From Candidatus Bipolaricaulota bacterium (GTDB taxonomy: Bacteria > Bipolaricaulota > Bipolaricaulia > RBG-16-55-9), in NCBI GenBank assembly GCA_026982655.1, contig JALSGO010000083.1, positions 30 through 64,029 of the forward strand: a stretch of 64,000 nt of DNA, read 5' to 3'. Below are positions 3,139 to 33,268 of the stretch, piece after piece. The translations under genes were made by a program, and so were the position numbers. Positions within the stretch are counted from its first letter, which is position 1; every line of letters begins with the position of its first letter. Below the pieces are notes generated by a model. That model was given only the letters and a program-made list of their open reading frames with translations. It made no database searches and had not been told where the DNA came from.

Positions 3139-4945
3139 GTGAACAAGTGGATTCTGCTCGTGCTGGCGGCGCTCGTCGTAGCGCTGCTGCTCCTGGGCTT
3201 GGGACGCCCCAAGCCGGAGGCGCCGGAGCAGGTGGCTCCTACCCCTACTCCGGCACCGAGGACGGAGAGGAGGGCGGAGCCCGTCGCGGAGGAGGGCGCG
3301 TTTAGGATGCTCTACGCGGGCTCGCCCGTCGGGGAGGAGCGCTACTCCCTGCGGAGCGTCGAAGGGGAGTGGGAGCTCCGCTCCGAGGTGGACCTCTCGA
3401 TCTTCGGGCAGGAGGCTACGCTTCGGACGAACCTGCAGCTCGCAGCGCCGGACCTCCCCCAGACGTACAGCCTCCAGGCGGACACACCCCAGGAGAGACA
3501 AGAGCTGCGGGTCACCCTCGACTGGACCGCCGGAAAGGCCTCCCTCCAAGCGAAGGCGGGAAGGCGGACGGTTCAACGCGAGCTCTCCGTGGAACGCCCG
3601 CTCTTCGTGATCGACAACAACGTGAGCAGCCACTTCGTCGTGCTCTACCGGGCGCTCCGCGTCCATGACTGGGGTGCCCGCCCGGAGCTGAAGGGGATGG
3701 CGCTCGCCCCACAACCCATGCTGACGGTCCCCCTGCGGGCCGAGCCTCCGCAGTCCGCTTCCGTCGTGAACAGAGCCACGGGGGAGACGGTGGACGTACA
3801 GAGCTTCCGCGTGCAGCTGGGAGACCTTGCGATCACGGTCTATGGGCAGGGGGACACCCTGCTGGTCATCGACAACCCGGCCCAACAGGTGCTCGTCTAC
3901 CGCTCCGACCTCCTGCCGGAGGGCGTAGAGCTCTCCGCTCCCTCGTCGGAGGCGGAAGCGTCCGAATCAGCCCTTCCCCGAGGGGTGCGGGAGGTGGAGC
4001 TCTCGTTCCGGAGCGAGGGGCTCACGCTGGCGGGGACGCTCGCGCTCCCCCAAGGGGAGGGGCCGTTCCCCGCCGTGCTGCTGCTCCCCGGCTCCGGGCC
4101 CGTAGATCGCGATGAGAACGCCCCCGGATTGCCGATCGACTTCTTCCGGGAGGCAGCCCATCGCTTGGCCCGAGAGGGGATCGCGAGCTTCCGCTACGAC
4201 AAGCGCGGCGTGGGGGAGAGCGAGGGCGACCTCTCCCGGGCGGGGATGCGCGATTTGGTAAGAGACGCCCGGGCCGCCCTAGAATTTCTCAGATCCCGGG
4301 AGGAAGTCGACCCCCGCAGGGTCTTCGTGCTGGGCCACAGCGAAGGAGGGGTCTTGGCCCCCCTGCTCGCCTCGGAGGGCGGGGTCGCCGGGGTCATCCT
4401 CGTGGCCGCGCCCGCCCAGCCCCTCGATCGGGTGCTCCTAGAGCAAGCCCGGCGAATCGCCGAAGCGATGGGCCTTCCGCCCGAACAGGTGGAAGCCCAA
4501 GTCCGGCAGACCCGACGGTTCATCGAGCTGGTGAAGTCCACCGAGGGCGATTGGGAGGACCTCCCCCCGGAGGAGCTCCAAGAGCGCTTCCCCTTGGCTC
4601 ACCGAGGAGCTGCTCGAGGCGTATCAGGGCCTCTCTCTGAGGTGGTTCCGCGAGCACTTTCGGCACAACCCCCTGCGGGCCGTGCAGTTCGTGCAGGCCC
4701 CCGTGCTGATCCTCCACGGCGAGAAGGATTTGCAGGTCGCGCCCTACCACGCGGAGCGCCTGGCCGAGGCCCTGCGCGAGGCCGGAAACCCGGACGTCAC
4801 GGTGAAGATCCTCCCCGACCTCAACCACCTCCTGCGCCGCCACCCGGAGGAACCCAGCGTCGCCTATCGGCATCTGGACGAGCCCGTGGACGAGCGCGTC
4901 CTGCGCCTCATCGCCGACTGGGTGAAGGAGCGCCTAGGGGGCTAA
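3139..4945 (+). pseudogene. exported alpha/beta-hydrolase with N-terminal extra domain, interrupted by a +1 frameshift near 4590
   Basis: GTG start after a GGAGG-rich RBS, then an N-terminal anchor. The GHSEGG nucleophile elbow is in frame 1. The conserved C-terminus (PVLILHGEKD...LNHLL) is in frame 2 (ORF 4682..4945), which is open from 4535. Frame 1 becomes Arg/Pro/Gly junk after about 4600. Confidence 0.7.
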
Positions 4946-6844
4946 GTGCTCCGTGAAGAAGCGGACGATCTCGTTATAGCATCGAACTTTGTTGGGGAAC
5001 TTCGTCACGTCGTGCCCCTCGTCCTCGAACACCAAGTATTCGACCTGCTTCCCCTGCCGACGGAGTTCCTCGACCAAGTCGCGCGACTCGGCTTCCACCA
5101 CCCGCGGGTCGTTCTTCCCCTGAATCACCAGTAGGGGGCACGCCAGACGGTGCAAATGCGTCTTGGGCGATCGCTCCACCAAGAAGTCGCGGTCGCGCTC
5201 GGGATCCCCTAGGATCATCCGGAAGTACGTCTGCCACGTCGGGGGGATGCGCTCCAAAAACGTTAAGAGGTTGTACGGCCCGAACATGTCGCAGGCGGCC
5301 TTCCACAATTCGGGGTGGCAGCCTGCGAGCATCAACGTCATATAGCCCCCGTAGGAGCGGCCCATGACGCCCGCACGCTCTAGGTCCAGCCTCTCGTCGT
5401 CCTTGAGGTGCTCGAAGGCGGCTACGTGGTCTAAGCGGTCCTTCCCGCCCCAGTCGCGGTCCACCTGCTTCATGTAGGAGAGCCCATAGCCGGAGCTGCC
5501 CCGGACGTTGGGGACGAAGACCGCAAAGCCCTTCAGCGTGAAGTACTGGATCAAGGGCATGGAGAACCAGGTGAAGTCGGGGCGCTCCTGGCTGTGGGGT
5601 CCCCCGTGGATGTAGAAGATCACGGGCCGTGGGCCTCGATACCCCAGCTGCTCCGAGGGCAGATACAACCGGGCGGAGACCCGCAGCCCGTCGTGGCTCT
5701 CATACGAGGCGTCCTCCCCCGGGGAGAGGAGCTCTTGAGGGATCCCCAGCACCCGCTCGCGGGTGTGCCGCCTCACCTCCCCGTCCTCCACGGTGTAGAT
5801 CTGCGCGGGCGAGGTGGCGGTGGAGAACGTCAGCACGAAGTGCCCGCTCCCCTTGTCGAAGTGCAAAGACTGGAGCACGCCGTCCCGCAGCGGGGCTTGG
5901 AGGCCGCAGATCGGGCGCTCGATGCGCAGTCGAAGGGCCTCTTCGTCGAAGGTCCCCTCGTAGACGTAGGAGCAGCCGTCGATGTTGTAATAAACGAGGT
6001 AGCGGTCGCCGTGGAGGCGCTCCAGGCCGGTAAGCTCCCCGAGGCCTCGGTGGAGGGTCCCCTCCACAGCCACGGGGCGCACGTCCTTGGGGTTCGCCAG
6101 CGGGAAGTACCCCAGGCCGTAGGTATCCTCGAAGAGGGAGGTCACAAAGAGCAGCCCCTCCCGCGTGAAGTGGCAGTCGTGGATCGAGTTTAAGGGGACC
6201 TCCTCGCCCGCTCGTCGTCCCTCTAAAGGCGTGCCGAAGAGGAGCTCCCGCCGTCGGGAGCCCTCCTCCCAGAGGTAGAGCACGTGATCCCCCGCCGTGT
6301 AGGAGTCCCGGAGGATGAGCTTTCGGTGATCCTCGCTTACGCCGTCCACGAGGTTGCCGTAGAGGCTCGTCCCCAGCTCTTCCCGTTTTAGGGTCTCGAG
6401 ATGGCAGCGGAACGTGAGGTGATTCGGGTCGGTGCGCGGGTCGACGGAGAAGTACGCTAGGTTGGCGTCGGGATCGCAGCGGAGGAGCCGGAGCTGTTGG
6501 CCCTCAAATTCTTCCCCGAAGAGCGGCTCGGGGAAGCCCCCCTCCAGGGGGATGACGTACGGCTGATAGTTCTCGTCCCCGTCGCGGTCGATCATCACCA
6601 CGATCTTCCCCAGTCGGGGGAAGACGGAGAAGGGCTTCCCGAACAGGAGGGCCGGGGTGTGCAGCGCCACGTCCCGGGGCAGCAAGGGCTCGGGGACGCT
6701 CCCGCCCTGGTCCATGGCGTACAGACTCAGGCGCCCGGAGAGGTCGCTGACGAAGTAGATGCGCTCCCCCACGAGCTGGGGGCTTACGAAGAGCCGAGTC
6801 GACAATAGGGCTTCTACAGATACAGACGTGCGGAGCGATGTCAT
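4934..6844 (-). CDS. S9 family serine peptidase (prolyl oligopeptidase / acylaminoacyl-peptidase type)
   Basis: N-terminal beta-propeller-like region, GRSYGGYM nucleophile motif, C-terminal LVIQGKNDPRV and EDEGHD. Start set at MTSLRT (ATG 6844), which has a GGGGAGAG RBS. Confidence 0.9.
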   Translation of the reverse strand: MTSLRTSVSVEALLSTRLFVSPQLVGERIYFVSDLSGRLSLYAMDQGGSVPEPLLPRDVALHTPALLFGKPFSVFPRLGKIVVMIDRDGDENYQPYVIPLEGGFPEPLFGEEFEGQQLRLLRCDPDANLAYFSVDPRTDPNHLTFRCHLETLKREELGTSLYGNLVDGVSEDHRKLILRDSYTAGDHVLYLWEEGSRRRELLFGTPLEGRRAGEEVPLNSIHDCHFTREGLLFVTSLFEDTYGLGYFPLANPKDVRPVAVEGTLHRGLGELTGLERLHGDRYLVYYNIDGCSYVYEGTFDEEALRLRIERPICGLQAPLRDGVLQSLHFDKGSGHFVLTFSTATSPAQIYTVEDGEVRRHTRERVLGIPQELLSPGEDASYESHDGLRVSARLYLPSEQLGYRGPRPVIFYIHGGPHSQERPDFTWFSMPLIQYFTLKGFAVFVPNVRGSSGYGLSYMKQVDRDWGGKDRLDHVAAFEHLKDDERLDLERAGVMGRSYGGYMTLMLAGCHPELWKAACDMFGPYNLLTFLERIPPTWQTYFRMILGDPERDRDFLVERSPKTHLHRLACPLLVIQGKNDPRVVEAESRDLVEELRRQGKQVEYLVFEDEGHDVTKFPNKVRCYNEIVRFFTEHLAP

Positions 6845-6930
6845 ATGGGTTCTCTCCCCTTGGATCTCGATTGAGGGTAACGGCATCGTACCCCAAACGG
6901 GGAGGGGGCACAAGGTCCGCCTGCTGGTCG

Positions 6931-7224
6931 TCAGGTTGGCATGACTTCGTAGAGTTGAAACTCGTTGGGACGGCTGAACCACTCCTTCGACGCTCCGCGG
7001 CGATGGCCTTTTTGGAACTCCTCCGAGTTCGTCCAGCGTTCGAAGTCCTCTCTCGATTCCCACCAGGTCATCACCAGGTAGTCCTCTCCGGTGGTGGGGC
7101 GGAGGATCTGGATGCGCACGAACCCCGGCATCGTCTCCACCAGCCGCTCCCGCTCGCGGAACCGCTGCTCGAAGGACTCCCGATACTCCGGTTTCACGAA
7201 GATCCGGTTGACGGCAACGATCAT
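6931..7224 (-). CDS. ABM-domain monooxygenase (IsdG/HmoB-like)
   Basis: About 97 aa with an ABM fold pattern. Asn6, Trp64 and His74 are spaced like the IsdG triad. Start at MIVAVN has a GAGGAGG RBS about 9 nt upstream. Confidence 0.7.
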   Translation of the reverse strand: MIVAVNRIFVKPEYRESFEQRFRERERLVETMPGFVRIQILRPTTGEDYLVMTWWESREDFERWTNSEEFQKGHRRGASKEWFSRPNEFQLYEVMPT

Positions 7225-7259
7225 CTCGTCTACCTCCTCGCTACGGGATCGGATGTGCA

Positions 7260-8384
7260 TCACGTTCTCATTATAGTGCGCGGCGTCTCCGCTCGATAGA
7301 GCGTGTGCGCTCCGGTGGCTGCGAGTGTCTCCACCTGTTGGAAGGACTCCCGGAGCCAGCGGAGGAGGGGGAGCCCCGCGGAGCTTACGACGTAGGCCCT
7401 CCCCCGGGGCTGCAACACCCGGGCTGCCCCCTGGATGAACCGCTGGGCCGTCTCCCGATCCCGCGTCCAGTCGCGATGAGCCGGGGGGTAGGTCAGCACG
7501 ACGTCAAAGCGTTCCCCTGCGATGCCGGAGGTGACGTCGCTATATCGTACCGCCGCCTGGGGCTCGGAGAGCCCGTAGAGCGCGAGGGTGCGCCGGGAGG
7601 CCTCCAAGGCGGCGGCGCTTACGTCCACCAGCACCGCTCGCGCCGCAAAGCGCCGGACTGCGAGGAGCCCCACGATTCCGGACCCGCATCCCAGGTCCAG
7701 CACGCGCTCCCCCGGCCTGAGGTCCATAGATTCTAGCAGCATGCGGGTCCCTGGGTCGAGTCCCTCGGCACCGTAGGCGAAGAGGGCCGGGTGGGTGTAG
7801 CTGTGCCACCTTTGCCCGTAGACCTCGACCTCGTGGAGCCGAAACCCCTCTCCGGGGTCCTCCCTCCGGGAGGAGAGAAGGAGCACGGCGCAGGCAGCTC
7901 GGCAGCCTCCGCCGTACGTCTCCTCCTCCAGATCCCCAAACAGCTCCCGTGTGAAGGCCAGGGCACCGGAGATGCCGCCGCGCTTCGGACCCGCCAGGCA
8001 GAACCGCCCGCCGGGTCGAAGGTACCAAGCGGCCAGCCGGATCAGTCGGCGGGTGAACTCCTTCCCCTTGGGGATGGAAAGACAGACGAGATCGAAGCTT
8101 CCCGGCGTAAGAACCGCGTAGCCGTCGCCGTGGAGGAGTCGGATTCGTCGCCCTGGATCGCGATCGCCCATGAGGCTGTCGCGGGCGAGAGCCCGGCGGA
8201 GGGCTTCAATGGCCCCTCCGTGGTCGTCCGCCAGCACCACGTCCCCGAGAGCTCGGCGGACGAGGAAGCGGGCGAGCTCACCCTTCCCTGCGCCACACCG
8301 CAGGTCGAGAACCCGGCGGGTGGGAGGAGAGAGGCTCAACCGGGCGATGAGCAGGCGGGCTGCGGGATCGCCGGGCTCCCTCAT
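7260..8384 (-). CDS. tandem-domain class I SAM-dependent methyltransferase (RsmC/RlmG-like)
   Basis: Two SAM-binding motifs (VLDLRCGAGKG and VLDLGCGSGIVG) and a YPPAH motif where N-MTases carry NPPFH. The start ATG at 8384 overlaps the upstream stop (ATGA). Confidence 0.75.
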   Translation of the reverse strand: MREPGDPAARLLIARLSLSPPTRRVLDLRCGAGKGELARFLVRRALGDVVLADDHGGAIEALRRALARDSLMGDRDPGRRIRLLHGDGYAVLTPGSFDLVCLSIPKGKEFTRRLIRLAAWYLRPGGRFCLAGPKRGGISGALAFTRELFGDLEEETYGGGCRAACAVLLLSSRREDPGEGFRLHEVEVYGQRWHSYTHPALFAYGAEGLDPGTRMLLESMDLRPGERVLDLGCGSGIVGLLAVRRFAARAVLVDVSAAALEASRRTLALYGLSEPQAAVRYSDVTSGIAGERFDVVLTYPPAHRDWTRDRETAQRFIQGAARVLQPRGRAYVVSSAGLPLLRWLRESFQQVETLAATGAHTLYRAETPRTIMRT

Positions 8385-9175
8385 TCTAGGGGGGCCGGGG
8401 GACTCCAAAACCCCACGAGCCAAACCTCCGATGCTGCGGCACGGAGTCGGATCGGACGGGCTGCGGAGAGCAGGGTCAACCCGCCGGGCTCCACCGTCAC
8501 CTCGGAGCCGAAGCGGTTCGTGCCCAGCCGCAACCCACCCCGCATCACGTAGAGCGCGACATCGCCTTCCGCCGGCCGCAGAGACCCCGTCCCCCGCAGG
8601 CGCAGGAGCCAAACGCTCCCGGTGGGGGACTCGAAGACGGGGGAGCCCTCTATGCTCTCGCCCTCTCCGGCTTCGGCTTCGACGTCGGTACCGGCCTTGA
8701 GCGACCTCAGAGGTTGGGTAAACCGCACGTCAAGAGCGATCCGAAGCGGAAAGAGCCCTCCAGAGATCGGCGGCTCGTCCCGGGTCACCGAGGGGGGAGG
8801 CGTGGAGAAGACGAGCAGGAGGAGAGTCCGATCGCCCGAAGGGCGGATCTCCGCTTGGGTCCCTTGGAAGAGGATGAGCAGCTCCTCCGCGTCCAGGCGG
8901 AGGTCCCCCTGAGGGAAGGTGGCGTGCCCTTGGCCCCGAAGGGCGAGCACGGCCTCGTGGCTGGCGGGGTTCGAGCGCCAGCTCTCCCCCGGCGGGATGC
9001 GCCAGAGGGTAAGGCGCCCCGACGGGTTCTCCCAGAGGACCCAAGGGGAAGGGGAGAGGGGGTCCCGGATCTCCTCCGGCGCGAGCACCCGAGGCCGAGA
9101 GCCCCCGCCGACGAGGAGATTCAGCGCCCACAGCCCCGTAAGCGCAGCGATCAGGAGGGCGAGAACCCAACGCAT
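8381..9175 (-). CDS. hypothetical membrane-anchored/exported protein (possibly cupin-like)
   Basis: N-terminal hydrophobic anchor MRWVLALLIAALTGLWAL and good codon bias. Translationally coupled to the methyltransferase. No motif I can name with certainty. Confidence 0.55.
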   Translation of the reverse strand: MRWVLALLIAALTGLWALNLLVGGGSRPRVLAPEEIRDPLSPSPWVLWENPSGRLTLWRIPPGESWRSNPASHEAVLALRGQGHATFPQGDLRLDAEELLILFQGTQAEIRPSGDRTLLLLVFSTPPPSVTRDEPPISGGLFPLRIALDVRFTQPLRSLKAGTDVEAEAGEGESIEGSPVFESPTGSVWLLRLRGTGSLRPAEGDVALYVMRGGLRLGTNRFGSEVTVEPGGLTLLSAARPIRLRAAASEVWLVGFWSPPAPLE

Positions 9176-9188
9176 GCGGCCCCGTCCT

Positions 9189-9563
9189 TCAGCCCCTCAT
9201 CGTGGGGGGGGGAGCGGGTTGGTCTCGACGGATCTCGTCCAGGGTTTCCACCGCCCTTCGCAAATGGGGGATGACGATGGACCCGCCTACGATCAAGGCA
9301 ACGCCGAACGCTTCGAAGAGCTCCTCGTCGGTTACGCCCTGCTCGGTGCACCGTAAGAGGTGGTACGTGATGCAGTCGTCACAGCGGAGCACCATCGAGG
9401 CTACCAACCCCATAAGCTCCTTCGTGCGGGCGGGCAGGGCCCCGTCCCGATACATCTGGGTGTCCAAGCTGAAGAGCCGGTTGATCGCAAGGTTCCCCTG
9501 GCGAAAGATCCGCTCGTTCATCCGTTCGCGGTACTCCTGGAATGCCTTGAGGCGATCGCCCAT
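9189..9563 (-). CDS. carboxymuconolactone decarboxylase / AhpD-fold protein with CxxC
   Basis: 124 aa, LRCDDCITYHL motif typical of the CMD/AhpD family. The start shares 1 nt with the stop of the upstream esterase gene (TGATG). Confidence 0.8.
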   Translation of the reverse strand: MGDRLKAFQEYRERMNERIFRQGNLAINRLFSLDTQMYRDGALPARTKELMGLVASMVLRCDDCITYHLLRCTEQGVTDEELFEAFGVALIVGGSIVIPHLRRAVETLDEIRRDQPAPPPTMRG

Positions 9564-10510
9564 CAAGGACTTCCCCCTTTCCTCCGCTCCGGTAAAGGAA
9601 GCGTCTTCCTCAAGAACGTCACGACGAGCTGGGTGGCGGGATCCTCCCTCCGGCCCAGGAACGCTACGATCGACCCGTGGTCCCGATCCGGGACCTCGGA
9701 GAGGTCCGCGTCCGCTCCTTGGGCGAGGAGGGCGCGATAGAAGACCTGCGCTTGGTGGCCCAACGTGGGGATATCGTACTGAGCGTACAAGATGAGAAAG
9801 GGAAACGGGGGAGGGTCGCCCTCCCGAGCGTACGTGAGGGGGGAAGCGTCTCGCCGGCGTTCGGGGTCGTTCCCGAAGACCTCGGCAAACCCGGGGACGG
9901 CGTTGAGGTCGTAGACGCCGCTGATGGGGATCACGCCGTCGAGGATCCGGGGGGAGAGCCCCTGCTCGCGGAGGTAGCGGTCGTCGAGGGCCAGCAGCGC
10001 GACGAGATGCCCCCCGGCCGAGTGGCCCATGAGGACGATCCGTTCGGGGTCTCCGCCGTAGTCGGCGATGCGGTTGTAGGTCCAGGCCACGGCGCGGGCG
10101 ACGTCCCGGACGTGCACCGGGTGCTGCACCTCGGGGCTCAGGCGGTAGTTGGGGATCACGGTCACGTACCCCTGGGAGGCGAAGGCATTCCCCAGGTAGC
10201 CATAGGTGCCCTTGTCGCCGCTCGTCCACCCCCCGCCGTGGACGAAGAGGAGCACCGGGGCCGCCTCCGCCCCCCGGAGGCGGTAGAGGTCCAGCGCGTT
10301 GCGCCGGGGATCCGCTCCGAACCCCTCGAAGTAGGGAAGGTCTTGGAGGACCTCTACCGCCGTCTCGGGCGAAAGGGGCTGTGCGTAAGGGATCAGCCCT
10401 CCCAGCAAGAGCAGAACCCAAGCTGCTCCTAGGTCCTGAAGCGTTCGGTGCCCACGCCGATCCCGATCCCGAGAGCGGTGCCGTCTCGGTCGTGCTGGGC
10501 GATCGATCAT
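9563..10510 (-). CDS. alpha/beta hydrolase, HGGG-type esterase (paralogue A)
   Basis: FVHGGGW oxyanion motif and GHSAGGH nucleophile elbow. Start set at MIDRPARP (ATG 10510), with GAGGAGG 6 nt upstream. Confidence 0.85.
   Translation of the reverse strand: MIDRPARPRRHRSRDRDRRGHRTLQDLGAAWVLLLLGGLIPYAQPLSPETAVEVLQDLPYFEGFGADPRRNALDLYRLRGAEAAPVLLFVHGGGWTSGDKGTYGYLGNAFASQGYVTVIPNYRLSPEVQHPVHVRDVARAVAWTYNRIADYGGDPERIVLMGHSAGGHLVALLALDDRYLREQGLSPRILDGVIPISGVYDLNAVPGFAEVFGNDPERRRDASPLTYAREGDPPPFPFLILYAQYDIPTLGHQAQVFYRALLAQGADADLSEVPDRDHGSIVAFLGRREDPATQLVVTFLRKTLPLPERRKGGSP
9908..10274. repeat. 367-bp inverted repeat, copy A (inside esterase paralogue A)
   Basis: The reverse complement matches 20585..20951, with only a 4-nt mismatch patch (10186..10189). 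Translations of all three frames are identical across the tract. Confidence 0.9.
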
Positions 10511-10529
10511 GAGGGACCTCCTCGGGAGG

Positions 10530-11945
10530 TCAAAACTCCTCCCATACAAGGTCGGTCACCACAGGGAGGCCGTTCTCCAAGCGCTTGACCTCCGCGCGCT
10601 GGATGCGAACGCGAACCTCACCCGTCTGCGAGTCCCAGTCCAGAAGCTTGCGGTAGGCGTACGGGAACCCCCGGAAGAGCCGAACCACGAAGGCGATCTT
10701 CTCGCGCAAGACCGTCTTGCCCGTGAGCGATTCGATGCGCTGCGCTCGGCTCACCATCGCGGGGGTGTCTCGGGTGTACGCTTCGAAGGTCGAGGCGAAA
10801 TCTTCGAAGCGATTGACCATGGCGTAGTGGAGGATCCCTGCCCGGCGGGCTCCGGCATCGGCGTCTTGGATGGGATAGCGATCGGAGTCCTCGCCTGAGC
10901 GCCGATGGAGCTGTATCCAGCGCTGCTGCTCCGAGGGGGTGAAGAGGCGATCCTGGAGGACGTGGCCGATCTCGTGATAGGTGGTCTCGGCAAAGGCCTT
11001 GAGGTGCCGGAGGTTGGCGAAGAGCCGTACGGTGCCCACCCCTGTGTACATGCCGGCGATCTCTTCGCTCTCCGGCATGCGGATGAACTGTGCGATCGGG
11101 TTGCGTAAGGGGTCCGGCAGGCTGCGGAGGACGGCCAGCAGGATCGCGCAGTAGGGCTCCGTCAGCGGCTCGGCCCCCTCCCGCTCGCCGATGAAGAGGA
11201 GGAACTCCTCAAAGATCCGGGTGCAGCTCTCCTCCGGCTGGGGAGGAGGGGCGGCAAAGAGGTCCACCGTGTCCCCTTCTCGGACGGCAAGCACCGCGAT
11301 GTCGTACGCTTGGCCCGCGCTGCGGTTGTCCCAACCGCGGGAAGTCGACCGTTCGTCCACATAGATCCCCCAGGAGCGGATCCTCTGCAGGGAGGTTTCC
11401 CAGTTGTAGAAGGCGGCATTTCCCGCGAGGTCCACGTCTTGGGAGTTAAGGACGAAGAACCCTCCTTCCCGGTTCCTCTCCGCCGTGTTGTCGCGGAGAC
11501 GCACCCGCTGTGAGTCGACGACCTGGAAGCCCCGATCGCTGCCCGTGACCCGGCAGGCCTCCACGGTGACGTTCGCAACCCGCTCCAGCAGGATCCCTAC
11601 CTCCCGGGCGTTGAGCACCTCACAGCGGCGTAGGATCACATACGCATCCGTGTCGGAGAGGTGAACCCCCACGGAGGCTTCGGAGGCGTCGATGCGCCAA
11701 CCTTCGATCACGTAGGGATCCCTTTCGGTGCCCGATCCCCGCAGCACGCCGTTTCTCCCCGTGAACTCTTCGTTCCCTCGGATGACGATGGGCGCGTGGG
11801 ACCGGAGAGGGCGCTCCTCCCGAGCTTGGGCCCAGACCGAGGAGCCCAAGTCCTCGGCCGGGAGGGCCAGGATTCCCACTAGCAAAGCTCCCCACAGGAA
11901 CGCCCGGATCGTGGCCATCCCTCGGGGCTTCTCCTCCTGCAGCAT
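10530..11945 (-). CDS. exported right-handed beta-helix repeat protein with C-terminal HExxH (putative metallopeptidase) domain
   Basis: Signal peptide MATIRAFLWGALLVGILALPA and PbH1-like repeats (PYVIEGWRID, ILRRCEVLN, VEACRVTGS, LRDNTAERN). The C-terminal region carries TYHEIGHVL. Start at MLQEEK (ATG 11945) has an AAGGAGGAGGAG RBS. Confidence 0.75.
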   Translation of the reverse strand: MLQEEKPRGMATIRAFLWGALLVGILALPAEDLGSSVWAQAREERPLRSHAPIVIRGNEEFTGRNGVLRGSGTERDPYVIEGWRIDASEASVGVHLSDTDAYVILRRCEVLNAREVGILLERVANVTVEACRVTGSDRGFQVVDSQRVRLRDNTAERNREGGFFVLNSQDVDLAGNAAFYNWETSLQRIRSWGIYVDERSTSRGWDNRSAGQAYDIAVLAVREGDTVDLFAAPPPQPEESCTRIFEEFLLFIGEREGAEPLTEPYCAILLAVLRSLPDPLRNPIAQFIRMPESEEIAGMYTGVGTVRLFANLRHLKAFAETTYHEIGHVLQDRLFTPSEQQRWIQLHRRSGEDSDRYPIQDADAGARRAGILHYAMVNRFEDFASTFEAYTRDTPAMVSRAQRIESLTGKTVLREKIAFVVRLFRGFPYAYRKLLDWDSQTGEVRVRIQRAEVKRLENGLPVVTDLVWEEF

Positions 11946-12153
11946 GCGGTGCTCCTCCTCCTTGCTTGCGTCGCCGGAAGTTGAAACAGGGGCGCTGCGG
12001 TAGATTCTGCCCTCCCAAGGGAGCGCACGCAACCCGTACCCTCCCCCCGGGGGGGCCAGGCTGTCGCGGGCGAGGCAGCCGTCCTTGTCTGCTCGACAAA
12101 GGTCGGGTATACCCAATCATCCGGTGGAACGGGCAAGGAAGGGAGGCGTCTCA

Positions 12154-12585
12154 ATGCTGGCTAAAGTGTTTGGGCAACCCGACGACGTAGCGTTGTTTCT
12201 CGGGCGGGTCATCCTCGGGGTGATCTTCTTTGCCCACGGGTATCAGAAGTTCTTCGACATCGGGGTGGAGAACGTCGCGTCCTTCTTCGCATCGATAGGG
12301 ATTCCGGCCCCCCTGTTCTTTGCCTGGGGGGTCTCGTTGGTGGAGCTCCTGGGCGGAGCGGCGCTGGTGGTGGGGGTCTTTACCCGCTGGGCGGCGTTGG
12401 GCGTTGCGATCATCCTGGTGGTGGCTACCCTCACCGTGAAGTTGCCTGTGGGACTCATCGCGCCCCCGGGGAAGGGAGCCGGCTACGAGCTCGACCTGGC
12501 CCTTTTGGGGCTGGCTTTGATCTTCCTCCTCGTCGGGCCCGGGCGCCTCTCTCTGGAGAAGGGCGTGCTCCGGAGGGAGATGTAG
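12154..12585 (+). CDS. DoxX family membrane protein
   Basis: Four TM helices and a GRVILGVIFFAHGYQKF motif. GGGAGG RBS lies before ATG 12154. Confidence 0.8.
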   Translation: MLAKVFGQPDDVALFLGRVILGVIFFAHGYQKFFDIGVENVASFFASIGIPAPLFFAWGVSLVELLGGAALVVGVFTRWAALGVAIILVVATLTVKLPVGLIAPPGKGAGYELDLALLGLALIFLLVGPGRLSLEKGVLRREM

Positions 12586-12599
12586 CCTCCCTCGGGTCC

Positions 12600-12628
12600 T
12601 TGCCGGACGGAAGGGGCTCCGGTATGCT
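12600..12628 (+). promoter_or_regulatory. putative sigma70-type promoter for rpoD (TTGCCG-17-TATGCT)
   Basis: Hexamers at 12600..12605 and 12623..12628 with a 17-nt spacer, in the doxX-rpoD gap. Confidence 0.35.
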
Positions 12629-12795
12629 GAACGGGGTCGGCTCGAGAGGCCCTGCCCGACTCGGCGGTGCGACGGATGCCAGGCTGGGGAGGGGGGAGGA
12701 GGGGAGCCCTTTCAGCAAGACCGACGTCGATACGGGACCGGGGGAGGATCGGATCGAAGGGGTGGGAGAAGGGGTGGGATAGGAGAGGCAGGATC

Positions 12796-13866
12796 ATGCG
12801 GGAACGGAGATCGGAAGAGATCGAGGAGAGCCGGAGCGAGAGGGAAGCGGCAGCAGAAGCCGGAGCAGGCGCGGAGGAGGCTTTTGTCTCCTCGGGGTCT
12901 GACCTCGCCCCCGACCCCGATCCTGCCCTGGAGGGGAGCTGGGGCCCCTTGGGGGAGTGGGAAGAGGGAGAAGGGGAAGGGGATCGAGCCGAGGAGGGGA
13001 GCGCCCCGCCTGCGGAAGGAGGATCGGGAGGCCGGGAGGATCCGATCCAAACCTACCTCCGGGAGATCGGCCGCATCCCGCTGCTGACGGCGGAGGAGGA
13101 GAAGGAGTTGGCCCGTCGCGCCCGTGCCGGGGACGAGGAAGCCAAGGCGAAGCTCGCCGCGGCCAACCTGCGCCTGGTGGTCTCCATCGCCAAGCGCTAC
13201 ACCGGACTGGGGCTCCCCCTGCTCGATTTGATCCAAGAGGGGAACGTGGGCCTGATGCGGGCCGTAGAGAAGTTTGACCCCGAGCGGGGATACAAGTTCA
13301 GCACCTACGCCACGTGGTGGATTCGTCAGGCCATCACGCGGGCCCTAACGCAGACTGCTCGATCCATCCGCCTCCCGGAGTCCCTCCTGCAGCGGTTGCG
13401 CAAGATCCAGGAAGCCGAGTCGGAGTGGCTCCAGGAGTACGGCGAGCTCCCCACGGACGAGGAGCTGGCGGAAGTGCTGGGGATGCCCGTTGAACAGATC
13501 CAAGAGGCCCGTCAGGCCCCGCAGTACACCCCCTCCCTCGATCAGCCCTTGGACGAAGAGGAGGACGGGGACGAGCTGGAGCAGCTCATCGGCAACGGGA
13601 GCCTCCCCTCCCCGCTGCGCACCGCCTTGAAGGAGCTGCGTCGCGAGGAGCTGCTCAAAGCTTTGGAATCGTTGAGTGAACGGGAGCGCAAGGTCCTCTC
13701 GCTGCGGTACGGTCTGGAGGACGACCAGCCCCGCACCCTCGAGGAGACCGGACGCATCCTGGGGATCAGCCGCGAGCGGGTCCGCCAGATCCAGAACGAA
13801 GCGCTGGAGAAGCTGCGCCAGCCCAAGATCCGCAAACGCTTGGAGAAGTTCCTCGACTTCACGTGA
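12796..13866 (+). CDS. rpoD: primary-like RNA polymerase sigma factor (sigma-70 family, RpoD/SigA)
   Basis: Acidic N-terminus, region 2 ([40 protein letters not shown]), regions 3 and 4 ([18 protein letters not shown]). AGGAGAGG RBS precedes ATG 12796. Confidence 0.92.
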
Positions 13867-13967
13867 GGGGCGACGCTCCGGCCCCAGGCGCGGCGGAAAG
13901 CGAATCCCCTCCCTGGCGCCCTGAGGATGGAGGCCTCGAAATCCCATCCTCTCCTTCCCTGTGTCCG

Positions 13968-13996
13968 TTGCCCCCGGACAGGTGCTCTGCTATACT
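13968..13996 (+). promoter_or_regulatory. putative promoter for ferredoxin gene (TTGCCC-17-TATACT)
   Basis: Hexamers at 13968..13973 and 13991..13996. This would give a leader of about 105 nt. Confidence 0.4.
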
Positions 13997-14107
13997 CCGT
14001 CTAACCGTGTCGTACCGTGACGTGCGTGCTGCACCGAAGGGCGTCGGGCGGAGACCCGGAGTGCAAGACGAAGGAGAAGGAGTAGTAAAGGGAGAAGGAG
14101 GAAGCGT

Positions 14108-14368
14108 ATGGCCTTTGTCATCGCGGAGCCCTGTGTGAACACCAAGTCGGGCGAGTGCCTCCAAGTCTGTCCGGTGGATTGCATCCACCCGCGTCCGGAT
14201 GAGCCCGGATACGACGAGGCCCCCCAGCTGTACATCGACCCACAGACCTGCATCAACTGCGGCGCGTGCGCGTCCGTCTGCCCGGTGGAGGCGATCTTCC
14301 CCGAGGAGGACCTCCCCGAGGAGTGGCGCAAGTACATCGAGATCAACGCGCAGTACTATCAGAAGTGA
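14108..14368 (+). CDS. ferredoxin (7Fe-type, 3Fe-4S + 4Fe-4S)
   Basis: CVNTKSGECLQVCPVDCI and CINCGACASVCPVEAI cluster motifs, with a strong GGAGAAGGAGG RBS. Confidence 0.9.
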   Translation: MAFVIAEPCVNTKSGECLQVCPVDCIHPRPDEPGYDEAPQLYIDPQTCINCGACASVCPVEAIFPEEDLPEEWRKYIEINAQYYQK

Positions 14369-14437
14369 CCCGCACGGAACGGAACGGGTCGTCTCCGCCT
14401 CCTCCAGGCCGTTCGGCGGTCCTGAAGGGCTTTCCTT

Positions 14438-15256
14438 TCAAGGGTCGAGGGCCGGATCCTTGGGAGGGCTCTGCCCCGTTCGGGGGACGAAGAGACGGAT
14501 CAACCCCATCCCGGCCAGGAATCCCCCGATATGGGCGATCCAAGCGACCCCGCCGCCGGCTCCGGATCCGGCCAGGGAAGCGTTCAGGAGCTGGAACAGG
14601 AACCAAAAGCCCAGGAAATACAGAGCCGGAAGCCGGAGGAGGCGCACGAAGTAGAAGAACCACAAGAGGGTGAGGACCCTTCCCCGAGGGTAGAGGACTA
14701 GGTAGGCCCCCAGCACGCCGGAGACGGCTCCCGAGGCACCGATCATCGGCACCGTCGAAGTAGGGTCTGCGGCGATCTGCGCTCCGGCGGCCGCCAATCC
14801 GCTTAGGAGATAGAAGAGAACAAAGCGAACCTTCCCCATCGCGTCTTCCACGTTGTCTGCAAAGACCCAAAGGTACCACATGTTCCCCACCAGATGGAGT
14901 ATGCTTCCGTGAAGAAACATAGAGGTGAATAGAGTCATCCAGAGGGGGAACTCGACGGGCGGGAAGGGCGAACAGCTCCCCAGCACCTCGCAGGGGGAGA
15001 GGCCGTAGGTGTAGAGGAAGAGCATCTCTCGGCTGAGATAAGCACCATGCCCTCCTCCGAGCTCAACCCAAACCCTACGATCGCCCAGGAGAAAGGCCTG
15101 ATAGAGGTAGATGAGGACGTCGATCGCGATGATCGTGACGGTCACCCCGGGGAAGGTGCGGCTGGGCCGGTAATCGCGCAGGGGGAAGAACACCGAGCAT
15201 CGCCTCGCTCTCCGGAAAGTCGGGCCCACTCTACCGCTTGGGGGAAAGCGCTGCAA
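14438..15256 (-). CDS. rhomboid family intramembrane serine protease
   Basis: HGSILHLVGNMWYLW and GASGAVSGVLGAY (catalytic Ser) motifs, with a downstream AHIGGFLAG His motif. The TTG at 15256 is the longest start; a GTG at 15193 with a GAGG RBS is an alternative. Confidence 0.85.
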   Translation of the reverse strand: MQRFPPSGRVGPTFRRARRCSVFFPLRDYRPSRTFPGVTVTIIAIDVLIYLYQAFLLGDRRVWVELGGGHGAYLSREMLFLYTYGLSPCEVLGSCSPFPPVEFPLWMTLFTSMFLHGSILHLVGNMWYLWVFADNVEDAMGKVRFVLFYLLSGLAAAGAQIAADPTSTVPMIGASGAVSGVLGAYLVLYPRGRVLTLLWFFYFVRLLRLPALYFLGFWFLFQLLNASLAGSGAGGGVAWIAHIGGFLAGMGLIRLFVPRTGQSPPKDPALDP

Positions 15257-15267
15257 CTCCGCTCCGT

Positions 15268-15296
15268 TTGAGTTCGCGGAGGCGCGGGCCTACAAT
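15268..15296 (+). promoter_or_regulatory. putative promoter TTGAGT-17-TACAAT for the DUF360-hicBA string
   Basis: Hexamers at 15268..15273 and 15291..15296. ATG 15304 follows the -10 box by 7 nt with no SD, consistent with a leaderless start. Confidence 0.45.
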
Positions 15297-15303
15297 GATA
15301 ACG

Positions 15304-15702
15304 ATGCGCTCCTCAAAGCTTCTTGCGTTCTTCGCGCGCTGGGTGGCCGGGACCCTGGCCATCTACGCCGTGGCTTGGCTTCTGCCGGGCATCGTGGTGG
15401 AGGACTTCGCCGCGGCGATCTGGGCCGGGCTGGCGTTGGGGCTCCTCAACGCTTTCCTACGCCCGCTGTTGATCTTCTTCACCCTCCCGGCCACGATCGT
15501 GACGTTGGGGCTGTTTATCCTGGTGATCAACGCGTTCATCCTCTATTTGGTGGGGGAGCTGGTGGCGGGCGTGGAGATCCGCGGCTTCGGCTCCGCGTTC
15601 CTGGGGGCGCTCCTCATCAGCCTCCTGAGCAGCGTCCTCTACGCCCTCATCGGACCGGAAGAATATCGTGTGCGGGTGGAACTTCGACGGGGACCCCGAT
15701 GA
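15304..15702 (+). CDS. DUF360 / phage-holin-4-2 (YvlD-like) family membrane protein
   Basis: Four TM helices and the NAFLRPLLIFFTLPATIVTLGLF pattern typical of this family. The alternative in-frame ATG at 15295 overlaps the predicted -10 box. Confidence 0.7.
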   Translation: MRSSKLLAFFARWVAGTLAIYAVAWLLPGIVVEDFAAAIWAGLALGLLNAFLRPLLIFFTLPATIVTLGLFILVINAFILYLVGELVAGVEIRGFGSAFLGALLISLLSSVLYALIGPEEYRVRVELRRGPR

Positions 15703-15977
15703 AGAGGAAGACGAGGGTGAAGGTCTTCTCCCTTCGGCGCTATGTCGAGGAAGCGCTGAAAAGGGCTTGCTACGAGGTCGACGAGAACGGCGTGGTGATC
15801 GCCAAGGTGCCGGATGCGTCCGGGTTCTTCGCCCAAGGGGAGACGTTCGAGGAGGCCCGGGAGAACCTGCGCGACGTCATTGAGGGAAACGTCATACTGG
15901 CCTTGCAGTTGGGGCTGGAGATCCCCCAGGTCTCCGGCGTCAAGATCGAAGAGCGCGAGGTTCCTATCGAGTCGTGA
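15699..15977 (+). CDS. hicB: HicB-family antitoxin (short, UPF0150-type, no obvious DNA-binding tail)
   Basis: 92 aa with a GFFAQGETFEEARENLRDVIE pattern. Its ATG overlaps the stop of the DUF360 gene (ATGA). Sits directly upstream of hicA. Confidence 0.75.
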   Translation: MKRKTRVKVFSLRRYVEEALKRACYEVDENGVVIAKVPDASGFFAQGETFEEARENLRDVIEGNVILALQLGLEIPQVSGVKIEEREVPIES

Positions 15978-15984
15978 GGGGCGG

Positions 15985-16209
15985 ATGGCCAAGCTCACCC
16001 CTCTCAAGCCCCGGCAGGTGATTCAAAAGCTGAGGAAGCTCGGCTACGTCGGTCCCTTCCCCGGCGGACGCCATCGCAGAATGGTACACCCGGAGTCGGG
16101 CAAGATCATTCCCATCCCCATGCACAGGGGGAAGGATGTGAGCGTAGGCCTCATCCGCGAGATCCTCCGCGAACTCGGCATCTCGCGTGAGGAGTGGCTG
16201 GACCTATAG
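15985..16209 (+). CDS. hicA: HicA-family mRNA interferase toxin
   Basis: 74 aa with LKPRQVIQKLRKLGY...GGRHRRM...IPIPMHRGKDV, matching the YcfA/HicA pattern including the conserved His. Confidence 0.8.
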   Translation: MAKLTPLKPRQVIQKLRKLGYVGPFPGGRHRRMVHPESGKIIPIPMHRGKDVSVGLIREILRELGISREEWLDL

Positions 16210-16273
16210 CTTCTCCTTCCCTGCTTGCAAGGCGGCTGGCGGACCGGAAGGTCGCAGGCAGGAGGAACTGGAC

Positions 16274-17230
16274 CTATAGCTCCAGCTCCTTCCCCACCCC
16301 CTGCTCCCGGGCCTTCCGGAAGAGGTGTGCCCCTACGGCGACGTCCTCCAGCGCGATCCCCTGGGACTCGAAGAGGGTGATCTCCTCGGCCTGAAGCCTT
16401 CCGGGGACGATCCCCGCCACCACGTCCTTGAGCTCACGGACCTGCTCCCAGCGCAGCACCCCCCGTTCGACCGCGGGGAGGAGGTCCCCGCACTCGACCC
16501 GGGCCTGCTCGAGGTCGTCCACCACCACGCGATTCGCCCGGCGGACGGCCTCGGTGTCCAGCTCGCGCCGGAGCCAGTGGTTCGAGCCCGCCGCCAGCAC
16601 GCACGTCCCCGGGGCGAGCCACTCCCCCCGGAGGACGGGCTCACGGGCCGAGGTGATCGTGATCACGATGTCCGCGCCCTCCACGGCCTCCCGCGCGTCG
16701 TCCACGGGTCGGATCTCCACACCCAGATGTTGGCCCATGCGCTCGGCGAAGGCCCGGCGGCGCTCGGGGGTGCGGCTGTAGACCCGGACGCGCTCGACGG
16801 GGCGGACCCGGCAGACGGCCTCCAACTGGGTCTCCGCTTGGTAGCCCGCGCCCAGAAGGCCCACGACCCAGGAGTCCTCTCGGGCCAAGTATTTGGCGGC
16901 CACCCCGGAGGCCGCGCCCGTGCGCACCTGCCCCAGGCGGTCGGCCTCCATCAAGGCCAAGACCTCCCCGGTCTCCGCGCCGAAGAGCACCACGAGGAAG
17001 CGGGCCCGGTGGCCCGCGACGGTGGAGTAGGACTTAAAGCCCATCACGCGCTCGTCGAGGGCCGCCGCGGGCATCAGGTGCAGAAAGCCGTGGGGCACCC
17101 GCACGCGCATCCGGGGACGGTTCACCGCCCTCCCCTCCCCCCAGCTGCGAAACGCCTCCTCCACGGCTCGGAGGGCGTCGTCCAGGGTGAGCAGCCTCTC
17201 CACATCGGATTCTCGAAGGAAAAGGGCCAT
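16274..17230 (-). CDS. ornithine cyclodeaminase / mu-crystallin family protein
   Basis: Full-length OCD_Mu_crystall pattern: RTGAASGVAAKYLA and the Rossmann motif GLLGAGYQA. Confidence 0.88.
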   Translation of the reverse strand: MALFLRESDVERLLTLDDALRAVEEAFRSWGEGRAVNRPRMRVRVPHGFLHLMPAAALDERVMGFKSYSTVAGHRARFLVVLFGAETGEVLALMEADRLGQVRTGAASGVAAKYLAREDSWVVGLLGAGYQAETQLEAVCRVRPVERVRVYSRTPERRRAFAERMGQHLGVEIRPVDDAREAVEGADIVITITSAREPVLRGEWLAPGTCVLAAGSNHWLRRELDTEAVRRANRVVVDDLEQARVECGDLLPAVERGVLRWEQVRELKDVVAGIVPGRLQAEEITLFESQGIALEDVAVGAHLFRKAREQGVGKELEL

Positions 17231-17261
17231 GCGAGTCCTCCTTTCTCATCCCAAGCCTTAC

Positions 17262-18533
17262 TTACGGTTGCTTCCGTAGCGCGGGGAAGACCCACGCGCC
17301 CACGAGGCCCGAGAGCGCCCCGCCCGCGCCCGCCAGCCCGAAGAGCCACGGCGCCTCCAACGCCTCGCCCAAGGCCCCCGTAGCAAACGACGAGAGGGCC
17401 ATAAACCCCACCACGGTAAGGTTCACCAGCGCGAAGACCCGCCCCAGGCGCTCCGGGGGCACAAGTTCTTGAATGAGCGACGTTCGGGTCACGGTGATGA
17501 GCGGGATGAACAGCCCGTGAAACGCGATCAGCGCCAAGCTCAGCCCGTAGGAGCGCACGTCCCCGCTCAGAAACGCCAGAAAGGGCAAATAGGTCGCCCC
17601 GTCCATCGCGATCCCGAGCAGCAGCAACTTCCCCTTGGGGAGGCGCTTGCCGTAGCGGAGCATCCCCAGCGTCCCCAGGAGCCACCCCGCCGCCAGCGCC
17701 GCCTGGAAGAACGCCAGGTGTCGGGCCTCCAGCTCGAGGGTTTGCTTGACGAAGAGGTTGGCCCCCACCACCGCCGGGCCCATGATGAAGAGGTTATCGA
17801 TGGCCGTGAGCAGCAGCAGCCCCCGCAGCACGGGCGAGCCCCACGCATACCGCAGCCCCTCGACGGCCTCCCGCCACGCCGAGGGCACCTCTCGTCGACG
17901 GCTCCCCAGGGGCGGCTCGTCCACCCGGATGAGCCAGACGCACAGGAACGAGACGAAGAAGGTGAGCCCGTCCAGCACCAGAAGCCGGATCATCGGGAGC
18001 ACCTCGTCCTCGCCCGCGCCTCCTCCGCTTCCCGTCTGCACGCTGAGCAGAACCCCGGCCAAGAGCGTCCCCGTGATCATCGCCAGCTGCGTCGAGGTCT
18101 GGACCCAGGCGTTCGCCTGCACCAGGCGCTCCTTCCCTACTAAAGAGGGGATCAGCGCGTCGCGGGCCGGGTTGAAGAGCGTGGAGAACGTCGAGAGCAG
18201 GAACGCGATCGCTCCCAAGGAGACCCAGCTCAGCCACCCCAGCGCCCAGAGCAGGGGCACCGCAAAGAGCAGAAGCCCCCGGGCGGCGTCGGAGAGGAGC
18301 ATCATCGTCCGGCGGCGGTAGCGGTCCACCAACGATCCGGCCAGGAGCCCGAACAACAAGAAGGGCAGCGTCTCCAAGGTGCTGACCGTCCCGGCCTTGA
18401 GCGCGCCCTGGGCGGGCTCGATCGTGAGGATCAAGAAGAGGACCGTGGCCTGAAACAGGAAATCCCCCGTCTGGGAGATGAACTGCCCGGCCCAAAGCAG
18501 CACCAAATTGCGGCTCTCCCGGAGGGCGATCAT
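17262..18533 (-). CDS. MFS transporter
   Basis: About 12 TM helices and an MFS loop motif GSLVDRYRRR. Confidence 0.85.
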   Translation of the reverse strand: MIALRESRNLVLLWAGQFISQTGDFLFQATVLFLILTIEPAQGALKAGTVSTLETLPFLLFGLLAGSLVDRYRRRTMMLLSDAARGLLLFAVPLLWALGWLSWVSLGAIAFLLSTFSTLFNPARDALIPSLVGKERLVQANAWVQTSTQLAMITGTLLAGVLLSVQTGSGGGAGEDEVLPMIRLLVLDGLTFFVSFLCVWLIRVDEPPLGSRRREVPSAWREAVEGLRYAWGSPVLRGLLLLTAIDNLFIMGPAVVGANLFVKQTLELEARHLAFFQAALAAGWLLGTLGMLRYGKRLPKGKLLLLGIAMDGATYLPFLAFLSGDVRSYGLSLALIAFHGLFIPLITVTRTSLIQELVPPERLGRVFALVNLTVVGFMALSSFATGALGEALEAPWLFGLAGAGGALSGLVGAWVFPALRKQP

Positions 18534-18555
18534 CGATCTAGGATCTAGACGTTAT

Positions 18556-19047
18556 CTAGACGTCCACGCGCTCGGCCTCGTGGGTTTCGGTGTCGTAGAG
18601 CGCGAAGGTGGAAGCCCCGAAGCGACCCATCACTTCCCCGGGGTTGATCAACAACGCGTTCCCCTCGCGCGAGAGGTGGAAGCGATGGTCGTGCCCGTAG
18701 CAGACGACGTCGTACTGCCCGGACTTCGCCAGGGCGCGCCCGATCTCGGGGAAGTGGGTCACCGCAAAGCGCTTCCCCCCTAACGAGAGCTCCGCGAACT
18801 CGCCGTGCAGCTTGACGTGCTCATAGCGCAGGGCCTGCTGCGCGATGCGGAAGGGGTCCCCGTCGTTGTTCCCGAAGACGATGTGGATCTCGCCCGAGAA
18901 GCCCTCGGCCAGCTGCGGAACGACGAAGGGCGCGCACAAGTCGCCGCAGCAGATCAGCGCTTCTGCGCCCCGCTTCCCGATCTCCTTCAGAACCTCCGAG
19001 AGCTTCCAGATGTTATCGTGGATGTCGGAGAGAATGACGATCTTCAC
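18556..19047 (-). CDS. YfcE/MJ0936-family metallophosphoesterase
   Basis: MKIVILSDIHDN, CCGDL, GNND and GHDH motifs. Confidence 0.88.
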   Translation of the reverse strand: MKIVILSDIHDNIWKLSEVLKEIGKRGAEALICCGDLCAPFVVPQLAEGFSGEIHIVFGNNDGDPFRIAQQALRYEHVKLHGEFAELSLGGKRFAVTHFPEIGRALAKSGQYDVVCYGHDHRFHLSREGNALLINPGEVMGRFGASTFALYDTETHEAERVDV

Positions 19048-19062
19048 GCCCTCACCTCCCCT

Positions 19063-19620
19063 TCAGTACTTGTACCCCTTCGCTTCCTCCTCGCTGAACT
19101 CGACGCCCAATCCCAAGGCCACGCGGTTTACGAAGTTGAAGTAGCTCACGATCAAGTTGGCTTGCAGGATCTCCTCGTCGGAGAAGCCGGCTTCCCTGAG
19201 GGTCTGAACGTCCTGCTCCGTCACGGACGAGGGCGATCGGGTGAGTTGGGCCGCGTACTCGACGATCGCCCGATCCTTCGGGGAGAGCTCGACTTGGCGG
19301 TAATCTTCAAGGAGCTTCTGCAGGCGCTCCTCGTCCTTCCAGTAGAAGTTGAGGGCTTCGGCGTGGTGGCGGGTGCAGTAGGCGCAGTCGTTGAGCACGG
19401 AGACGACCGTCGCGATCAGCTCCCGCTGCTCGCGGCGCAGCCCGCCGGGGCGGAACATGAGGGCTACGTAGAGCTCGAGGTGCTGCTGCATCGTCTCGGG
19501 CAGGAGGCTCTGCACCTTGAGGATGTTGGCCACCTTGCCCCGGGCTTCTCGAATTGCCTCGTAGATCCGGGCCAGATCCCCTTGGGCCTCGGGTTCGTCG
19601 ACGACGCGGATCCAGGGCAT
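19063..19620 (-). CDS. AhpD-fold peroxidase-related protein (CxxC)
   Basis: LNDCAYCTRHH motif. Start set at MPWIRVV (ATG 19620), because the upstream part of ORF 19063..19917 is low complexity. Confidence 0.8.
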   Translation of the reverse strand: MPWIRVVDEPEAQGDLARIYEAIREARGKVANILKVQSLLPETMQQHLELYVALMFRPGGLRREQRELIATVVSVLNDCAYCTRHHAEALNFYWKDEERLQKLLEDYRQVELSPKDRAIVEYAAQLTRSPSSVTEQDVQTLREAGFSDEEILQANLIVSYFNFVNRVALGLGVEFSEEEAKGYKY

Positions 19621-19732
19621 CGTATGCACCCCTTCGATGGTACGCCGAGCGGGCAGCACGGGCAAGCGAGCGGCATGGGGAACGAACTTGTCTTTTCGCG
19701 AGCCAGCCGTTAAAGTTTCGCAGGAGGGTGCG

Positions 19733-33181: not shown

Positions 33182-33268
33182 AGCCCGCGGGTGCGGAACG
33201 GGCGTGGAATAGAGAGAACAAAGAAGGAAGGCAAAGAAAGAATCTCCCAACGATGGAGGTGCTGTTCG

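Follow-up and report, generated by a model that had tools for sequence, protein, structure and literature searches.

Two esterase genes that lie 10 kb apart in inverted orientation on a contig of an uncultured Bipolaricaulota (Acetothermia) bacterium share a nearly identical internal tract set between strongly diverged flanks. Recent gene conversion appears to be the only reading that fits the evidence, and the probability of a recent non-reciprocal transfer of ca. 367 nt from one paralogue (copy A) into the other (copy B) by homologous recombination is estimated at about 0.88. The whole stretch of DNA analyzed here (the window, 64 kb) is a metagenome-assembled contig. It was compared with independent assemblies, all of them short-read and some possibly from the same or related samples, and the counts for flanks and third codon positions were made on a codon alignment of A, B, and three orthologues (P0003, P0004, and P0005). 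The features are listed in Table 1.

Table 1. Features of the window and contigs from independent assemblies (window positions unless stated otherwise).
Feature	Coordinates	Strand	Remarks
Esterase copy A	9563–10549	-	EstDZ2/family XV type (predicted); BD-FAE, Abhydrolase_3; syntenic orthologue of P0003, P0004, P0005
Esterase copy B	20373–21269	+	EstDZ2/family XV type (predicted); older extra paralogue downstream of sodC; triad intact; start uncertain
Conversion tract in copy A, probable donor	9908–10274	-	A residues ~93–214, including HGGG and GHSAGG (Ser177)
Conversion tract in copy B, probable recipient	20585–20951	+	B residues ~72–193, including HGGG and GHSAGG (Ser156)
Unconverted island in A	10186–10189	-	AATG in coding sense, Asn-Ala
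Unconverted island in B	20670–20673	+	CGCT, Arg-Ser
Interval between the inverted tracts	10275–20584		10,310 nt; recovered as single contig L087
RpoD-like sigma-70 gene	12667–13866		best matches RpoD models, below equivalog cut-offs
Conserved cluster	6916–10549; L001 3242–6888; L002; L003; L007 10001–11257	- (window)	esterase, CMD/AhpD (CxxC), 264-aa protein, RsmC-like methyltransferase, ABM monooxygenase-like
CMD/AhpD-domain gene, CxxC, 124 aa	9189–9563	-	directly downstream of A; pairing kept in relatives
CMD/AhpD-fold gene, CxxC, 185 aa	19063–19620		near copy B
sodC (Cu/Zn superoxide dismutase)	19733–20518	+	upstream of B
Contig L085	10048 down to 6544		ENA MEGAHIT, k=141; 99.94%
Contig L087 (10,770 bp)	10045–20814		ENA MEGAHIT, k=141; 100%
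Contig L088	20811 onwards		ENA MEGAHIT, k=141; 99.84%
Contig L086	9937 down to 6767		Logan, k=31; 100%

A nearly identical tract between diverged flanks

In a base-by-base comparison, the reverse complement of positions 9908–10274 matched positions 20585–20951 at 363 of the 367 nucleotides, the exceptions being four adjacent bases (10186–10189 versus 20670–20673) that split the tract into exact blocks of 85 and 278 nt. Both the tract coordinates and the four-base patch, which changes Asn-Ala to Arg-Ser, had been given correctly in the initial annotation of this DNA. A repeat search of the window (G+C content 66.6%) returned a sole inverted repeat of at least 40 nt, the 737-nt pair 9605–10341 versus 20518–21254 with 82% complementarity. 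This mean value conceals a mosaic of a near-perfect tract and diverged flanks: the 3′ flanks of A and B were identical at 201 of 309 nt (65%) and the 5′ flanks at 47 of the 86 alignable nt (55%), in agreement with the strong divergence outside the tract that had been claimed from the translations. At the tract edges, the identity fell abruptly to ca. 65% and then remained flat, with no gradient beside the boundaries. The alignment of both genes, which the initial annotation had proposed as a check, thereby excluded uniform identity over their full length.

The third codon positions of A and B were the same in 122 of 123 cases within the tract versus 60 of 131 in the flanks (Fisher p = 5e-25), and the codons for a shared amino acid were identical in 120 of 120 versus 33 of 71 cases. 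The longest run of matches, 278 nt, compares with a maximum of 72 nt when the mismatch positions were permuted 100,000 times. Since selection at the protein level cannot homogenize synonymous sites, the identity of the tract reflects recent shared ancestry of the DNA itself. In the flanks, the third positions were the most diverged, which indicates that both copies evolved under purifying selection.

The two esterases

Both reading frames matched the BD-FAE, Abhydrolase_3, and related alpha/beta-hydrolase models, and their homologues belonged mostly to Bipolaricaulota/Acetothermia MAGs; copy B was 49% identical to EstDZ2a (P0019) from an uncultured Acetothermia bacterium. EstDZ2 is a characterized, secreted, and moderately thermostable esterase with GHSAG and HGGG motifs, and it has been assigned to a proposed "family XV" (Zarafeta et al., 2016; PMC5171882). 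Copies A and B share with it the two motifs, an N-terminal signal-like segment, and the catalytic Ser/Asp/His residues at aligned positions (S177/D259/H291 in A and S156/D238/H270 in B), the triad being kept in both. Judged by these features and by the similarity to EstDZ2, both qualify as predicted secreted esterases of the EstDZ2 type (family XV). As opposed to EstDZ2, the two proteins of the window are known from sequence alone, and the EstDZ2 paper is silent on paralogues or conversion. The tract contains the HGGG oxyanion motif and the nucleophilic serine of GHSAGG, while the Asp and His of the triad are in the unconverted 3′ flank. The earlier description of the converted part as the "catalytic core" therefore holds for HGGG and the serine (S177 in A, S156 in B), not for the Asp/His pair (D259/H291 and D238/H270).

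The database gene call of A (P0002, 315 aa) starts 13 codons later than the open reading frame 9563–10549. The public gene call of B (P0001, 234 aa) begins at a TTG at 20565 and is without a signal peptide; the family similarity of B reaches upstream of this codon, to ca. 20421–20493. The late public start is due to the reading frame of sodC, which runs on into the 5′ part of B. That sodC precedes copy B, as stated earlier, was supported by a Sod_Cu domain in 19637–20359. The sodC frame stays open to 20518, ca. 74 codons past the domain end (ca. 20296), and as many as 146 nt of the 5′ part of B lie within it. The sequence of this overlap is identical in the independent contig L087, and the overlap may be the junction where copy B was inserted. 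A third, distant alpha/beta-hydrolase homologue (4937–5626, minus strand), situated within a larger reading frame (4934–7063), is ca. 23% identical to the orthologous esterases and is uninvolved in the conversion.

The repeat in independent assemblies

Exact-product look-ups of A, B, P0001, and P0002 gave no match; independent contigs were reached by looking up the products of neighboring genes and one predicted partial product. Contigs L085, L087, and L088 all break off precisely 141 nt into the 278-nt exact block, and L086 starts 30 nt inside the tract. The start of L088 had been predicted beforehand and was confirmed via the implied partial product of 152 residues. Contigs that stop k (or k-1) nt inside a repeat point to a true repeat of the de Bruijn graph, with two continuations per boundary present in the reads. 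Contig L087 spans the complete interval and extends beyond it by 85 + 4 + 141 nt on either side; these 230-nt termini are inverted repeats of each other, with the four-base island as their sole difference. Because L087 holds the 5′ halves of both genes, both copies must reside on one molecule, and because any SNP would have extended the contigs, no base difference is hidden inside the 278 nt.

These contig ends also decide on an assembly artefact, that is, a collapsed or chimeric path through the metagenome graph that masks a diverged core in one of the genes. The metagenomic origin of the window and the length of the 278-nt repeat, which exceeds the usual k-mer sizes and leaves the linkage across it to read pairs, would be compatible with such an error, and the initial annotation had named it as the observation that would overturn the finding. 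However, all tested edges, in three contigs at k=141 and one Logan contig at k=31, break exactly at the repeat. Moreover, sequences that are 65–80% identical share no k-mers at k=141 and are not collapsible, so that at most one central SNP could hide, and the contig ends exclude even that. With the two 5′ halves also joined on one 10.8-kb contig, an artefact is highly improbable.

Compared with the window, L085 had two mismatches in 3,505 nt, L088 nine mismatches and one gap in 10,467 aligned nt, and L087 none in 10,770 nt. With a population diversity of only ca. 0.1%, the lack of differences within the tract gives no age for the conversion.

Gene neighborhoods and the origin of the two copies

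The close relatives in the searched collections were only three: P0003 (L002), P0004 (L003), and P0005 (L001, which is one contig with L004 and L084). All three of these contigs have the order esterase, CMD, a ~260-aa protein, methyltransferase, and, where the contig reaches that far, ABM, and the same order was found downstream of A from 10549 down to 6916 on the minus strand. The esterase–CMD pair also occurs in the more distant Acetothermia genome L007. In the conserved cluster, the esterase stop overlaps the CMD start; the 264-aa protein is unannotated, with only faint cupin matches in a relative. The flanks of A were 62–78% identical to the orthologues and those of B 52–71%, and in a tree of the C-terminal flank, B fell outside the group of A, P0003, P0004, and P0005 with 75% bootstrap support and inside the next outgroups. 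Taken together, the conserved synteny, the flank identities, and the flank tree identify A as the syntenic orthologue and B as an older extra paralogue.

A CMD neighbor had been reported beside each copy. Both genes indeed encode proteins of the CMD/AhpD fold with a CxxC motif, but the pairing is conserved in relatives for A only, and the two proteins, with 34% identity over 32 alignable residues, belong to separate subfamilies. The shared CMD neighborhood is probably coincidental. Segmental duplication of an esterase + CMD unit was ruled out, as the two CMD proteins are barely alignable.

An orthologue of B was found in none of the searched collections (proteins, species-representative genomes, and metagenome contigs), and the scan of species-representative genomes returned no genome with an esterase adjoining sodC. 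The same genomes held no close relative besides L004, i.e., the L001 contig, and a profile of the C-terminal flank recovered from the metagenome contigs only this already known contig. With no B orthologue and no further close relative, the conversion is not datable by comparison.

Probable direction and course of the conversion

In contrast to the flank tree, the tract tree paired A with B in 100% of bootstraps, the place of the pair within the clade being unsettled. Homogenized synonymous sites, abrupt boundaries, the conflict between the tract and flank trees, and the independent assemblies all bear out the recent gene conversion that had been suggested from the sequence. Regarding its direction, the tract matched the three orthologues with an identity of 0.80 in the 85-nt block and 0.826 in the 278-nt block, compared with 0.80 and 0.835 between the orthologues. 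In the flanks, the corresponding values were 0.67–0.78 for A, ~0.54–0.69 for B, and 0.75–0.81 among the orthologues. Of the positions at which all three orthologues are the same, 7.7% are different in the tract, 10.3% in the 3′ flank of A, and 19.7% in the 3′ flank of B, whereby a B-type origin of the tract is rejected under the assumption of uniform relative rates (binomial p = 1e-6). Since the tract is as near to the orthologues of A as these are to each other, on both sides of the island, a transfer from A into B is the likely direction by this relative-rate argument. The lack of a gradient beside the boundaries speaks for one recent event, or for a small number sharing their end points, rather than for prolonged conversion whose ends vary.

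Such a long-running process, i.e., concerted evolution by repeated two-way homogenization, possibly GC-biased and with identical catalytic cores being favored, was considered because of the base composition. The GC3 of the tract is 0.96–0.97, compared with 0.82–0.83 in the 3′ flanks and 0.82–0.88 in the tracts of the orthologues (Fisher p = 6e-4 and 8e-6). The ratio of AT-to-GC to GC-to-AT changes was 19:10 on the A/B tract lineage versus 14:29 in the 3′ flank of A (p = 0.008), and a GC bias of gene conversion in bacteria has been put forward (PMC4450053). Yet an equally high GC3 is reached by 8% of all the 122-codon windows across the genes of the contig (mean 0.89), and since such windows are common, the signal of GC-biased conversion was downgraded. 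Repeated events with variable endpoints would, moreover, give a gradient at the boundaries, and the tract is no mixture, being wholly A-like in its distance to the orthologues. Long-term concerted evolution is therefore very unlikely.

About 7% of the tract consists of changes absent from all three orthologues, which, with the rest of the genome lying outside the comparison, could also be read as the mark of an external donor (a related strain or a third, undetected paralogue) that replaced both cores. This reading would require two events with identical end points, and the rate of unique changes in the tract equals that of A's own flanks. Among 5.8 billion proteins, the tract occurred in no other protein, the next best match being 70% identical, and a tract 27-mer had no match in a metagenome contig collection in which the source contig itself was also unmatched. 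A third donor is thus hardly credible.

The A-to-B transfer may be pictured as follows. Copy A is the ancestral gene of the two, and copy B an older duplicate that had diverged to ca. 55–65% nucleotide identity before the conversion. A break in B might then have been repaired with A as the template, or a heteroduplex might have formed and been repaired subsequently, overwriting the region of the oxyanion hole and the nucleophile elbow in B. Before conversion, the core was presumably only ca. 75–80% identical, a poor substrate under active mismatch repair. A 248-aa gene of the Rad52/Rad22 family (single-strand annealing), annotated by a precomputed Pfam match on L088, is located at 26445–27191 on the plus strand after hrcA-grpE-dnaK-dnaJ and beside a ComEC-like gene; such a protein might assist recombination across diverged repeats.

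The window contains another pair of paralogues, in direct orientation and ca. 7 kb apart (33191–35848 and 40099–42771), that look like copper/heavy-metal P-type ATPases by motif and gene length. Each has two CxxC-encoding N-terminal repeats (repeat 33356–33652 versus 40324–40620). Over 1.8 kb (33962–35770 versus 40939–42741), they are 74% identical with a longest exact match of 69 nt at 34307/41278. No long converted tract was found between these two genes; the 69-nt block could be a small one.

The four-nucleotide island

The island falls on the codons AAT GCC in A and CGC TCC in B, where the orthologues have CGN GCN (Arg-Ala). Each copy thus departs separately from the ancestral state. The island is present in the independent contig L087 as well. 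That four separate point mutations hit 4 adjacent nt and spared the other 363 is implausible, and the simplest reading is a spot that escaped conversion. A simple model of a single conversion tract does not predict such an island. Its cause may be a four-base heteroduplex bubble in which repair restored the recipient sequence, which appears the likeliest, or else a pair of adjoining events or selection against converting these residues. In the tuf system, mismatch repair shortens and distorts conversion tracts (PMC5485169). Two events of opposite direction flanking the island found no support, as the sub-tracts on both sides are A-like. From the general topology of alpha/beta-hydrolases, we presume that the helix connecting the oxyanion strand to the following one carries the island close to its end, off the active site.

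The inverted repeat and the 10.3-kb interval

The interval between the tracts encodes NosD-like, DoxX, RpoD-like sigma-70, ferredoxin, rhomboid, and holin-like proteins, HicB/HicA, an ornithine cyclodeaminase-like protein, MFS, metallophosphoesterase, the 185-aa CMD protein, and SodC. The HicA/HicB toxin-antitoxin pair and the Phage_holin_4_2-like gene are situated at ca. 15300–16200 (L087 4606–5520). The earlier placement of rpoD in the interval stands insofar as a sigma-70 gene is present whose best matches are RpoD models; its scores stay below the equivalog cut-offs.

The minimal pairing length for RecA-dependent recombination is ca. 25–30 nt. By their sequence and arrangement, the exact inverted blocks of 278 and 85 nt, 10.3 kb apart, are a valid substrate for RecA-mediated inversion, and the earlier proposal to that effect is logically sound, given these blocks and the tuf precedent. 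RecA-type recombination at the repeats could invert the 10.3-kb interval. Each esterase would thereby receive the promoter and the N-terminal signal-peptide part of the other with both genes remaining in frame, and the orientation of the RpoD-like sigma-70 gene would be reversed. No recombinase gene was found in the interval or its neighbors, so any inversion would proceed via general homologous recombination, and a programmed invertible element (site-specific invertase, shufflon-like) was ruled out on this ground.

The orientation of the middle segment is given by the 64-kb contig only, the k=141 assembly being compatible with either. As the 5′ and 3′ halves of A are both orthologue-like, the assembled orientation represents the ancestral pairing. 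A chimeric protein with the 5′ part of A and the 3′ part of B was absent from the matches of the 5.8-billion-protein search, and the GC skew over 1–32 kb had no step at the repeat boundaries as a mark of recent inversion. It is quite unlikely that the repeat is used in the population, with both orientations coexisting, as a recombinase-free switch maintained by conversion in which the island is kept by selection. If it were, the upstream region of the conserved CMD–methyltransferase–ABM cluster would be at times its own and at times that of sodC, and the Asn-Ala and Arg-Ser pairs would each have to stay matched to their own N-terminal half.

Comparison with known systems and implications

The closest parallels are known systems of ordinary bacterial gene conversion, a well-known phenomenon to which the esterase tract belongs, with no new mechanism involved. 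Similar to the tufA and tufB genes of Salmonella enterica (Hughes, 2000; Paulsson et al., 2017; PMC5485169), the esterases are inverted paralogues on one chromosome with exchange, non-reciprocal in tuf and probably so here, over tracts of a few hundred nucleotides, in an arrangement where such recombination can also turn around the intervening segment. In tuf, the tract ends and anomalies were ascribed to mismatch repair (PMC5485169). In contrast, the tuf genes are ~99% identical over their full length through continual conversion and hundreds of kb apart, whereas the esterases are 55–65% identical with one isolated tract and only 10 kb apart; conversion and inversion in tuf were established experimentally, while the present case is read from nucleotide sequences. 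The ectopic conversion and concerted evolution of rRNA operons (PMC6002687) likewise homogenizes part of a repeated gene non-reciprocally within one genome, but the esterase tract is a short mosaic within strongly diverged protein-coding paralogues and carries a 4-nt island.

For work with these sequences, it follows that the orientation of 10275–20584 in this MAG contig depends on read-pair evidence only, and that other assemblies of this population will break into separate contigs at the tract. Phylogenies of the esterase family that use the core region will misplace copy B. Overall, the two genes represent a clean and independently checked case of probable interlocus gene conversion in the phylum Bipolaricaulota, whose members are known from metagenomes only, and suggest that homologous recombination acts there between paralogues that are only ~60% identical.
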